A DNA stretch of 64,000 bases, taken from the NCBI RefSeq assembly GCF_009931435.1, contig NZ_CP043414.1; one strand, 5' to 3'. A program made the position numbers. Source of the DNA: Escherichia coli (GTDB lineage Bacteria > Pseudomonadota > Gammaproteobacteria > Enterobacterales > Enterobacteriaceae). The first letter of the stretch is position 1. Each line of letters starts with the position of its first letter. Shown one piece after another: positions 27,001 through 30,000 of the stretch.

Positions 27001-30000
27001 CGTGAACAGGCATCTGGGGCATACAGCGTTTCTTCTCGCCTCTCGGTTGATCCTCAGGCCAAAGATATCACCCATTTGCTGGCTTTTACTTGTCAACCAG
27101 AACGGCATGAAGAACTGTTAGCGTTAGCGAATGAAGTGATGGTTAAGCGTCTGGCTAAAGGGATCAGTAAGCAAGAACTGAACGAATACCAGCAAAACGT
27201 TCAGCGCAGCCTCGATATCCAACAGCGTAGCGTTCAACAATTAGCGAACACCATTGTAAATAGTCTTATTCAATATGACGATCCTGCCGCATGGACTGCG
27301 CAGGAGCAATTATTGAAACAAATGACGGTAGATAATGTTAACACTACGGTTAAACAATATCTTTCTCATCCGGTGAATACCTTTACCGGAGTATTACTAC
27401 CAAAATAATGACGTCCCCCGTCAACATATCGTTGGCGGGGGTTTTAGCAACAGACGTTATTTTATATAATAATTTTATGAATGCGTTCAAAATAACAACC
27501 GAGTACTAATAATGATATTTTAAGGGCTAATTTTTATGTGATAATTCACCAGAGTTAGAAAGCGCGTCAAAATAATGACATACAACACCACACTACAATC
27601 CATAACACCCTACGCTATTGTTTTTTAACGTAAATATATTTTTCCCATAATATCTCACGATAAATAACATTAGGATTTTGTTATTTAAACACAAGACCTT
27701 TGCACTTGCTTACTTTATCGATAAATCCTACTTTTTTAATGCGATCCAATCATTTTAAGGAGTTTAAAATGGATAAGAAGCAAGTAACGGATTTAAGGTC
27801 GGAATTACTCGATTCACGTTTTGGCGCTAAGTCTATTTCCACTATTGCAGAATCAAAACGATTTCCGCTGCACGAAATGCGCGATGATGTCGCATTCCAG
27901 ATTATCAATGATGAGTTATATCTTGATGGCAACGCTCGTCAGAATCTGGCAACGTTCTGCCAGACCTGGGACGACGAAAATGTCCACAAGTTGATGGATT
28001 TATCCATTAACAAAAACTGGATCGACAAAGAAGAATATCCGCAATCTGCAGCCATCGACCTGCGTTGCGTAAACATGGTTGCCGATCTGTGGCATGCGCC
28101 TGCGCCGAAAAATGGTCAGGCCGTTGGCACCAACACCATTGGTTCTTCCGAGGCCTGTATGCTCGGCGGGATGGCGATGAAATGGCGTTGGCGCAAGCGT
28201 ATGGAAGCCGCAGGTAAGCCGACTAACAAACCAAACCTGGTGTGCGGTCCGGTACAAATCTGCTGGCATAAATTCGCCCGCTACTGGGATGTGGAGCTGC
28301 GTGAGATCCCTATGCGCCCCGGTCAGTTGTTTATGGACCCGAAACGCATGATTGAAGCCTGCGACGAAAACACCATCGGCGTGGTGCCGACTTTCGGCGT
28401 GACCTACACCGGTAACTATGAGTTCCCGCAACCGCTGCACGATGCGCTGGATAAATTCCAGGCCGACACCGGTATCGACATCGACATGCACATCGACGCC
28501 GCCAGCGGTGGCTTCCTGGCACCGTTCGTCGCCCCGGATATCGTCTGGGACTTCCGCCTGCCGCGTGTGAAATCGATCAGTGCTTCAGGCCATAAATTCG
28601 GTCTGGCTCCGCTGGGCTGCGGCTGGGTTATCTGGCGTGATGAAGAAGCGCTGCCGCAGGAACTGGTGTTCAACGTTGACTACCTCGGCGGTCAGATTGG
28701 TACTTTCGCCATCAACTTCTCCCGCCCGGCGGGTCAGGTGATTGCACAATACTATGAATTCCTGCGCCTCGGTCGTGAAGGCTATACCAAAGTACAGAAC
28801 GCTTCCTACCAGGTTGCCGCTTATCTGGCGGATGAAATCGCTAAACTGGGGCCGTATGAGTTCATCTGTACGGGTCGCCCGGACGAAGGCATCCCGGCGG
28901 TTTGCTTCAAACTGAAAGATGGTGAAGATCCGGGATACACCCTGTATGACCTCTCTGAACGTCTGCGTCTGCGCGGCTGGCAGGTTCCGGCTTTCACTCT
29001 CGGCGGTGAAGCCACTGACATCGTGGTGATGCGCATTATGTGTCGTCGCGGCTTCGAAATGGACTTTGCTGAACTGTTGCTGGAAGACTACAAAGCCTCC
29101 CTGAAATATCTCAGCGACCACCCGAAACTGCAGGGTATTGCCCAGCAGAACAGCTTTAAACACACCTGATAACGTTTAACGGTAACGGTGTCCCGAAACG
29201 AACCCGTTTCGGGACAATTTCCAAAGTCTGTTCACTGGCATTAGCAACGGAAAATATTGTTCTGAATACGCTTCAGAACAAAACAGGTGCGGTTCCGACA
29301 GGAATACCGTTTTAGGGGGATAATATGGCTACATCAGTACAGACAGGTAAAGCTAAGCAGCTCACATTACTCGGATTTTTTGCCATAACGGCATCGATGG
29401 TAATGGCTGTTTATGAATACCCTACTTTCGCAACATCGGGCTTTTCATTAGTCTTCTTCCTGCTATTAGGCGGGATTTTATGGTTTATTCCCGTGGGACT
29501 TTGTGCTGCGGAAATGGCTACCGTCGACGGCTGGGAAGAAGGTGGCGTCTTCGCCTGGGTATCAAATACTCTGGGGCCGAGATGGGGGTTTGCAGCGATC
29601 TCATTTGGCTATCTGCAAATCGCCATCGGTTTTATTCCAATGCTCTATTTCGTGTTAGGGGCACTCTCCTACATTTTGAAATGGCCAGCGTTGAATGAAG
29701 ACCCCATTACCAAAACTATTGCAGCACTCATCATTCTTTGGGCGCTGGCATTAACACAGTTTGGTGGCACGAAATACACGGCGCGAATTGCTAAAGTTGG
29801 CTTCTTCGCCGGTATCCTGTTACCTGCATTTATTTTGATCGCATTAGCGGCTATTTATCTGCACTCCGGTGCTCCCGTTGCTATCGAAATGGATGCGAAA
29901 ACCTTCTTCCCTGATTTCTCTAAAGTCGGCACCCTGGTTGTGTTTGTTGCCTTCATTTTGAGTTATATGGGGGTAGAAGCTTCCGCAACCCACGTCAATG

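Follow-up and report, generated by a model that had tools for sequence, protein, structure and literature searches.

A conserved stem-loop and a mapped RNA 3' end between gadB and gadC in the acid-resistance operon of Escherichia coli

Stable stem-loops between the cistrons of bacterial operons may stabilise the message that precedes them, as do the repetitive extragenic palindromic (REP) sequence between malE and malF of Escherichia coli and the hairpins that follow pufBA in Rhodobacter capsulatus. Others are leaky intrinsic terminators that adjust how much of each protein an operon yields, such as the attenuator at rplL-rpoB and partial terminators recognized by end-enriched RNA sequencing (Rend-seq). 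In this work, we analyzed a 64,000-nt stretch of the E. coli contig NZ_CP043414.1 (assembly GCF_009931435.1; hereafter the window), which carries the gadBC operon for glutamate decarboxylase (GadB) and its antiporter (GadC), and in particular a hairpin in the spacer between the two genes (hairpin 1). E. coli and Shigella withstand extreme acid mainly by means of the glutamate decarboxylase system, for which one operon must yield much soluble decarboxylase and little membrane antiporter. The locus resembles malE-malF and pufBA in that the upstream product is soluble and abundant and the downstream product is a membrane protein, and in that a stable hairpin without a good U-tract follows the abundantly needed cistron, with RNA ends at its base and read-through beyond it. 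It differs from the malE-malF REP sequence in that hairpin 1 is unique and present in one copy per genome, and a stabilising effect would be assigned to it by analogy. With the leaky terminators of operons it shares a G+C-rich hairpin between cistrons and a 3' end that maps to a short run of U, but its U-tract is much weaker than those of two real terminators of the locus. Hairpin 1 is an unannotated element of an ordinary, well-known kind and not a new principle. In our judgement, it probably works as a stem-loop in the sense RNA of gadBC that generates and shields the 3' end of an mRNA carrying gadB alone, and a conserved stem-loop of this kind would be a simple route to the imbalance between GadB and GadC.

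An earlier note on this DNA, made from the sequence alone, had described a perfect 11-bp inverted repeat with a 4-nt loop between gadB and gadC. This repeat is indeed present (GTCCCGAAACG-AACC-CGTTTCGGGAC at 29190-29215), and the stem reaches 12 bp if the flanking positions are included (29189-29216). A 42-nt piece containing it folds with -21.1 kcal/mol (z = -4.7), and none of 200 shuffled sequences folded as well. Seven places in the window have a perfect hairpin with a stem of 10 bp or more and a loop of 3-8 nt, compared with 0.48 entries expected from dinucleotide shuffles; two of the seven lie inside the gadB-gadC spacer, and another is the gadC terminator. Hairpin 1 is far beyond what chance would provide. 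The four remaining perfect hairpins of 10-12 bp (2084-2107, 4490-4520, 44017-44044, and 47911-47942) are presumably terminators. On its 5' side, hairpin 1 is adjoined by three AACGKT units (AACGTT-T-AACGGT-AACGGT, 29174-29188) that are nearly invariant across Escherichia.

The 3' ends of RNA in E. coli K-12 have been mapped by Term-seq, a check that the earlier note had named together with its contrary outcome, i.e., uniform transcripts that lack 3' ends at this site. In sheet M63 0.4 of Supplementary file 1, Adams et al. 2021 (PMC7815308) list a curated 3' end at MG1655 1570594(-), whose entry sequence is ...GTCCCGAAACGAACCCGTTTCGGGACAATT[T]CCAAAGTCTG, given also as TAACGTTTAACGGTAACGGTGTCCCGAAACGAACCCGTTTCGGGACAATT[T]CCAAAGTCTG. 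Each entry of this table shows the end with 50 nt before it and 10 nt after it, a layout that we confirmed on the thrL entry. The position was then transferred to the window by equating 1570645, where the gadB stop codon of K-12 ends, with 29169, the spacer being 100% identical, which puts the end at the equivalent of 29220. The contrary outcome is thus not borne out for this spacer sequence, on data that come from K-12 and not from the strain of the window. The end lies 51 nt past the gadB stop in K-12, and since this exceeds the 50-bp cut-off for 'primary' ends (PMC7815308), the entry is labelled 'orphan' and carries no gene name; hairpin 1 puts a name on this unlabelled end in a public data set. 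The end was covered by 33,817 average reads, compared with 70,553 at the gadC terminator end 1568900(-) (PMC7815308). As at intercistronic stabilising hairpins, ends at the hairpin base and the end at the operon terminator thus occur in the same sample. The SMRT-Cappable-seq (single-molecule real-time sequencing of capped transcripts) supplements had no entry for gadB or gadC.

Comparison of ten Escherichia spacers revealed that hairpin 1 is their most sequence-variable segment, yet it stays paired. In E. albertii, 13 of 30 positions differ, which is close to the 37% found at fourfold-degenerate sites, and the stem is kept through double changes (T-A to C-G and A-T to G-C), while strain E69 has a G.U pair. 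Changes on both sides affect 4 of the 12 base pairs, and 93% of the alignment cells are paired; for the fold of the whole spacer, five pairs show double changes versus 2.0 in shuffled alignments, a value reached by 2 of 500 shuffles. One-sided changes mostly yield G.U pairs on the sense strand, which supports hairpin 1 as a sense-strand RNA. Within E. coli, 4972 of 5408 records carry the spacer with 99% identity or more, and it occupies a median of one place per genome. The 57-nt piece around hairpin 1 is likewise single, and its haplotypes account for 3594, 1105, and 362 of 5406 records, with about 345 others. In nine variant E. coli genomes that were sampled, the changes were confined to the loop (29201/29203), the loop-closing pair (29200), or position 29188 outside the stem. 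As far as these alignments allow one to judge, the pattern is that of a purely structural RNA hairpin; structure is conserved over sequence, as at intercistronic stabilising hairpins, in a set of few sequences that are all related. In Escherichia sp. MOD1-EC7003 (locus L003, 859-990), hairpin 1 has two mismatches and the second hairpin of the spacer (hairpin 2, see below) has lost 1 nt, and these weakened hairpins may reflect relaxed constraint or an assembly error.

The same comparison bears on whether the palindrome acts as DNA, either as an operator bound by a dimeric regulator or as a REP-type repeat, which we consider extremely improbable. The palindrome is perfect over 28 bp, and the compensatory changes preserve DNA symmetry as well, but the arms change between species while the pairing is kept, and changes of the G.U type break the symmetry of the DNA and not the pairing of the RNA. 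The many copies with a shared consensus that define REP and other dispersed repeats are not found, as hairpin 1 occurs once per genome. To our knowledge, its sequence is unlike the REP consensus. Moreover, ChIP-exo (chromatin immunoprecipitation with exonuclease digestion) work on GadE, GadW, and GadX has gadBC controlled from the promoter only.

In the reading that we prefer, transcription would start at the promoter activated by GadE through the GAD box (a 20-bp activator site described below) and continue through gadB. Twenty nucleotides past the gadB stop, the RNA would fold into the 12-bp hairpin of about -21 kcal/mol, followed by AAUUUCC. Most polymerases would read through into gadC, whose translation would be independent of that of gadB because gadC has its own Shine-Dalgarno sequence 155 nt downstream. 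RNAs containing only gadB and ending in ...GGGACAAUUU would accumulate, preferentially because read-through RNA is cleaved, or decays from its 3' end, until exonucleases are halted by the hairpin; weak hairpin-dependent termination would contribute a smaller share. Either way, the decarboxylase message would become more plentiful and longer-lived than the antiporter message. How the 3' end arises, its protection, and any influence on the GadB:GadC ratio are our inference, and we put the division between trimming and termination close to even. Thus, of the earlier proposal that the hairpin is a partial terminator or an mRNA stability element, the existence of a 3' end is borne out in K-12, and the choice between the two roles is left nearly balanced.

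It is possible, although we think it less probable, that hairpin 1 is chiefly a leaky intrinsic terminator, at which a fraction of RNA polymerases release at AAUUU, so that attenuation and not stability sets gadB above gadC. The stable, G+C-rich 12-bp stem with its short tetraloop is what such a terminator requires, its stability equals that of the two real terminators of the locus, and the in vivo 3' end, known from K-12, falls on the last U of a short run at a distance from the stem like that at the gadC terminator. However, the U run of at least 4-5 in 8 nt directly after the stem, which typifies intrinsic terminators, is not there. The tail, AAUUUCCAAA, was described as weak in U from the outset, and it contains three U in the 10 nt past the last G-C pair, which follow two A and do not adjoin the stem, compared with six U at the gadC terminator and four at the pqqL terminator. 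Its U-weight is 0.9-1.5, whereas the pqqL and gadC terminators reach 3.10 and 3.95, respectively. Such a weak U-tract argues for leaky rather than efficient intrinsic termination. A simple terminator scan also left hairpin 1 unflagged, which is weak evidence since it missed the gadC terminator on the + strand too.

Spacers from other genera bear on both readings. We compared 60 gadB-gadC spacers from other Proteobacteria with 38 other same-strand spacers of 60-200 nt taken from the same loci as controls. A local hairpin that beat 95% of shuffles was present in 46 of the 60 gadB-gadC spacers, most of these hairpins beginning 4-22 nt after the stop codon, and in 29 of the 38 controls. A hairpin was thus rejected as a special trait of gadBC operons across Proteobacteria. 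In favour of leaky termination, some genera have a hairpin with a full U-tract between gadB and gadC: seven T occupy the 8 nt after the fold in Yersinia rohdei (L010) and Comamonas (L057 and L058), and in Serratia (L015) and Citrobacter (L039) a T run starts within the predicted fold. Against it, at least five T in the next 8 nt were found for 7 of the 46 significant gadB-gadC hairpins. A strong hairpin is also present in the gadB-gadC spacer of two Brucella-group loci (L026 and L046), which come from strains other than that of Brucella microti, in which gadB and gadC are co-transcribed (PMC5695133); this instance of read-through outside Escherichia counts for our preferred reading.

A further explanation is that Rho terminates transcription in the untranslated spacer and that the RNA is then trimmed back to the hairpin. 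The RNA between gadB and gadC is untranslated over 155 nt, and genome-wide 3'-end studies indicate that true Rho termination sites are hidden by post-transcriptional processing (PMC7815308; PMC6061677), both of which count for this explanation. However, the 104 nt past the hairpin are structured and not rich in C (C 20, G 25), and Adams et al. list no Rho-dependent region here in their data from lysogeny broth (LB) at an optical density of 0.5, a condition in which gadBC expression is probably very low. We consider a contribution of Rho very unlikely.

Several points weigh against our preferred reading of hairpin 1 as a stem-loop that forms and protects the gadB 3' end. The end is listed in one of three Term-seq growth conditions (M63 glucose) and is absent from the LB sheets, M63 glucose being also the sole condition in which the gadBC operon terminator end is listed. 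Term-seq cannot separate termination from processing, and the read count at the gadB end, about half that at the operon terminator end in K-12, is not a stoichiometry. Furthermore, counted from the last G-C pair, the 3' end is at +5 for hairpin 1 and at +6 for the gadC terminator, and owing to these nearly equal distances its position does not discriminate termination from trimming. The covariation comes from about ten related sequences, and template-switch mutation in DNA palindromes can mimic it. Since hairpins are equally frequent in the control spacers, their recurrence across genera is not specific evidence. Finally, a search of the literature, excluding older gad papers, found no half-life, Northern, or protein-ratio data for gadB-gadC.

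No other non-coding part of the locus is as conserved as the complete spacer. None of its 155 positions differs from K-12, whereas fourfold-degenerate sites differ between the window and K-12 at 21 of 218 positions in gadB and 39 of 275 in gadC (10-14%); the comparison of the spacer with the gadC sites gives a Fisher p of 1.7e-8, and that with the gadC-digH spacer, which differs at 7 of 130 positions, gives p = 0.004. The tract identical to K-12 spans 208 nt (29164-29371) and is flanked by normal divergence. In E. albertii, about 9% of the spacer outside hairpin 1 differs, versus 37% at fourfold-degenerate sites. The whole spacer folds with z = -4.3 and contains hairpin 2, a second perfect hairpin (-10.9 kcal/mol, z = -3.6). 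Both this hairpin and the invariance of the spacer with respect to K-12 are additional to what the earlier note had described. Moreover, GGA motifs are present at 29249-29251 and 29301-29303 and inside the gadC Shine-Dalgarno sequence. The sequence around the hairpins is thus constrained as sequence, which a 3' hairpin alone does not explain, and this strict conservation is the only point that might repay work.

These features would fit an explanation in which hairpin 1 is a module of a larger, 155-nt gadC leader that controls gadC translation or stability through a small RNA (sRNA), a protein, or a condition-sensing fold, the 3' end being a by-product. We regard this as unlikely. Screening with Rfam 15 covariance models gave no match at an E-value of up to 1 on either strand of 27000-31200, and we found no literature report of a gadB-gadC hairpin, terminator, sRNA, CsrA site, RIL-seq (RNA interaction by ligation and sequencing) partner, or regulation at this spacer. 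Helices other than hairpin 1 hardly vary, which leaves no covariation signal; hairpin 2 has C.A mismatches in three lineages, and one compensatory change (T-A to C-G) in one lineage; the first GGA is absent in E. albertii; and no similarity to the spacers of other genera was detected. It is likewise doubtful whether the spacer is an undescribed post-transcriptional control region that combines both functions, hairpin 1 making or guarding the gadB 3' end and the segment 29217-29324 setting gadC translation. If it were, this segment, with hairpin 2 and the GGA motifs, would have to bind an sRNA or a protein or to refold with conditions, for which we see a rather small chance.

Other readings of the spacer were considered and set aside. 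A recombination patch as the source of the identity with K-12 was rejected, as the tract has just 208 nt and divergence outside hairpin 1 is reduced with respect to E. albertii too. An internal gadC promoter was rejected as well: the sole scan hit (29295-29324) abuts the ATG, and a weak candidate found by eye (TTCACT-18-TATTGT) has lost its last T in four lineages. Small open reading frames (ORFs) in the spacer encode merely 22-33 amino acids (aa) and overlap the gene ends; nothing gene-like was seen. On the minus strand, hairpin 2 is followed by UAUUUUCC / TATTTTCC and was flagged as terminator-like, but no plus-strand (antisense) 3' end is listed nearby in K-12, and a function as an antisense terminator was discarded. 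The C.A mismatches of hairpin 2 correspond to G.U pairs on the antisense strand.

The paralogue gadA offers a comparison within K-12, where it precedes gadX, and the parallel counts for our preferred reading. There, a 15-bp hairpin of -28 kcal/mol with a poor U tail lies about 20 nt after the stop codon, again followed by a downstream gene, which is presumably co-transcribed with gadA by read-through. The hairpin sequences are, however, unrelated, the similarity between gadA and gadB ending a few bases after the stop, and no Term-seq 3' end is listed at the gadA hairpin in K-12. As the gadB-gadC spacer occurs once per genome and the 3' flank of gadA is unrelated to it, a hairpin common to both genes was rejected.

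Upstream of gadB, the 20-bp GAD box reported in the earlier note (ttaggattttgttatttaaa) lies exactly at 27670-27689 on the + strand. It is the sole match in the window at up to three mismatches, and 100 dinucleotide shuffles gave no match. The box, an exact single copy of the 20-bp sequence TTAGGATTTTGTTATTTAAA, matches the published GadE site TTAGGAttTTgTTATTTAAa (PMC4918353, ChIP-exo motif). Both the 20-mer and its position relative to the gadB ATG, from which its end is separated by 79 nt, are identical to those in K-12. The GAD box is reportedly the GadE-RcsB site of the gadA and gadBC promoters (Castanie-Cornet & Foster 2001; Ma et al. 2003). Its centre is expected about 60 bp before the transcription start, with the site upstream of the gadA/gadB core promoter. 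The location in the window, with its K-12-identical position in a conserved block, agrees with this placement, and a -10-like CTACTTT was read by eye about 35 nt before the gadB ATG. By its sequence, then, the box is a textbook GadE site that is already known and needs no new explanation. The system differs from that of K-12 in nothing within the box, and the core promoter is conserved; the region further upstream has diverged (27551-27645, 30 of 96 positions, 31%), which presumably corresponds to the location of the GadX/GadW sites in K-12. A motif-like stretch in this region reads GGCTAATTTTT in the window versus GTCTGATTTTT in K-12. The GAD box also lies within a 9-bp perfect inverted repeat, TAAATAACA / TGTTATTTA (27661-27687), and within 27666-27735 its left half, TTAGGATTT, recurs in reverse-complement form as AAATCCTA (27723-27730), beside the -10 region.

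Table 1. Features of the gadBC locus in the window and the gadA hairpin used for comparison (UTR, untranslated region; GABA, gamma-aminobutyric acid)
Feature	Position	Strand	Description
pqqL	24613-27408		Coding sequence
pqqL intrinsic terminator	27415..27441	+	Inverted repeat with 11-bp stem, then UUUUAG; upstream limit of gadB control region
gadB core promoter and 5' UTR	27646..27768	+	Contains GAD box; 3/123 differences from K-12
GAD box	27670..27689	+	Predicted GadE(-RcsB) activator site of gadB promoter; exact match to published site
gadB coding sequence	27769..29169	+	From ORF list; 466 aa; stop TGA 29167-29169; matching E. coli records annotate it as gadB
gadB-gadC spacer	29170..29324	+	155 nt; gadC leader on read-through mRNA
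Hairpin 1	29189..29216	+	Perfect 12-bp stem with 7 G-C pairs, tetraloop AACC; starts 20 nt after gadB stop
Term-seq 3' end equivalent	29220	+	RNA ends ...GGGACAAUUU-3'; MG1655 1570594(-)
Hairpin 2	29257..29281	+	Perfect 10-bp A/U-rich stem, 5-nt loop: TTGTTCTGAA-TACGC-TTCAGAACAA
gadC Shine-Dalgarno AGGGGGA	29314-29320	+	4 nt 5' of gadC ATG
gadC coding sequence	29325..30860	+	511 aa; glutamate:GABA antiporter
gadBC operon terminator	30884..30910	+	11-12-bp stem, then UUUUUC; K-12 Term-seq 3' end 1568900(-)
gadA 3' hairpin	L089 2621-2663	minus	15 bp, 13-nt A-rich loop, then GCUUAUUAAU

The coordinates of all features are collected in Table 1. The gene order of the window, pqqL-gadB-gadC-digH/yddW-dosC, is the same as in K-12, and the gadB ATG begins at 27769, not 27770. 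The pqqL terminator folds with -21.3 kcal/mol (z = -4.7) and has four U right after its stem, and the fold of the gadBC operon terminator amounts to -18.1 kcal/mol. The window apparently comes from a divergent lineage of Escherichia: none of the complete RefSeq E. coli genomes was more than about 99.0% identical to it in the two regions that were tested, and most were 95-99% identical. In E. coli ET896, a frog isolate (L091), gadB is annotated as frameshifted (pseudogene), and the spacer and the hairpin are intact. GadC of Escherichia shares 70-80% identity with its counterparts from other Proteobacteria (loci L009-L074), and GadB mostly 56-63%, and 51% in one locus, with the decarboxylase encoded beside each GadC. 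The decarboxylase has thus diverged more than the antiporter, a hint that gadA/gadB of Escherichia had a history of their own.

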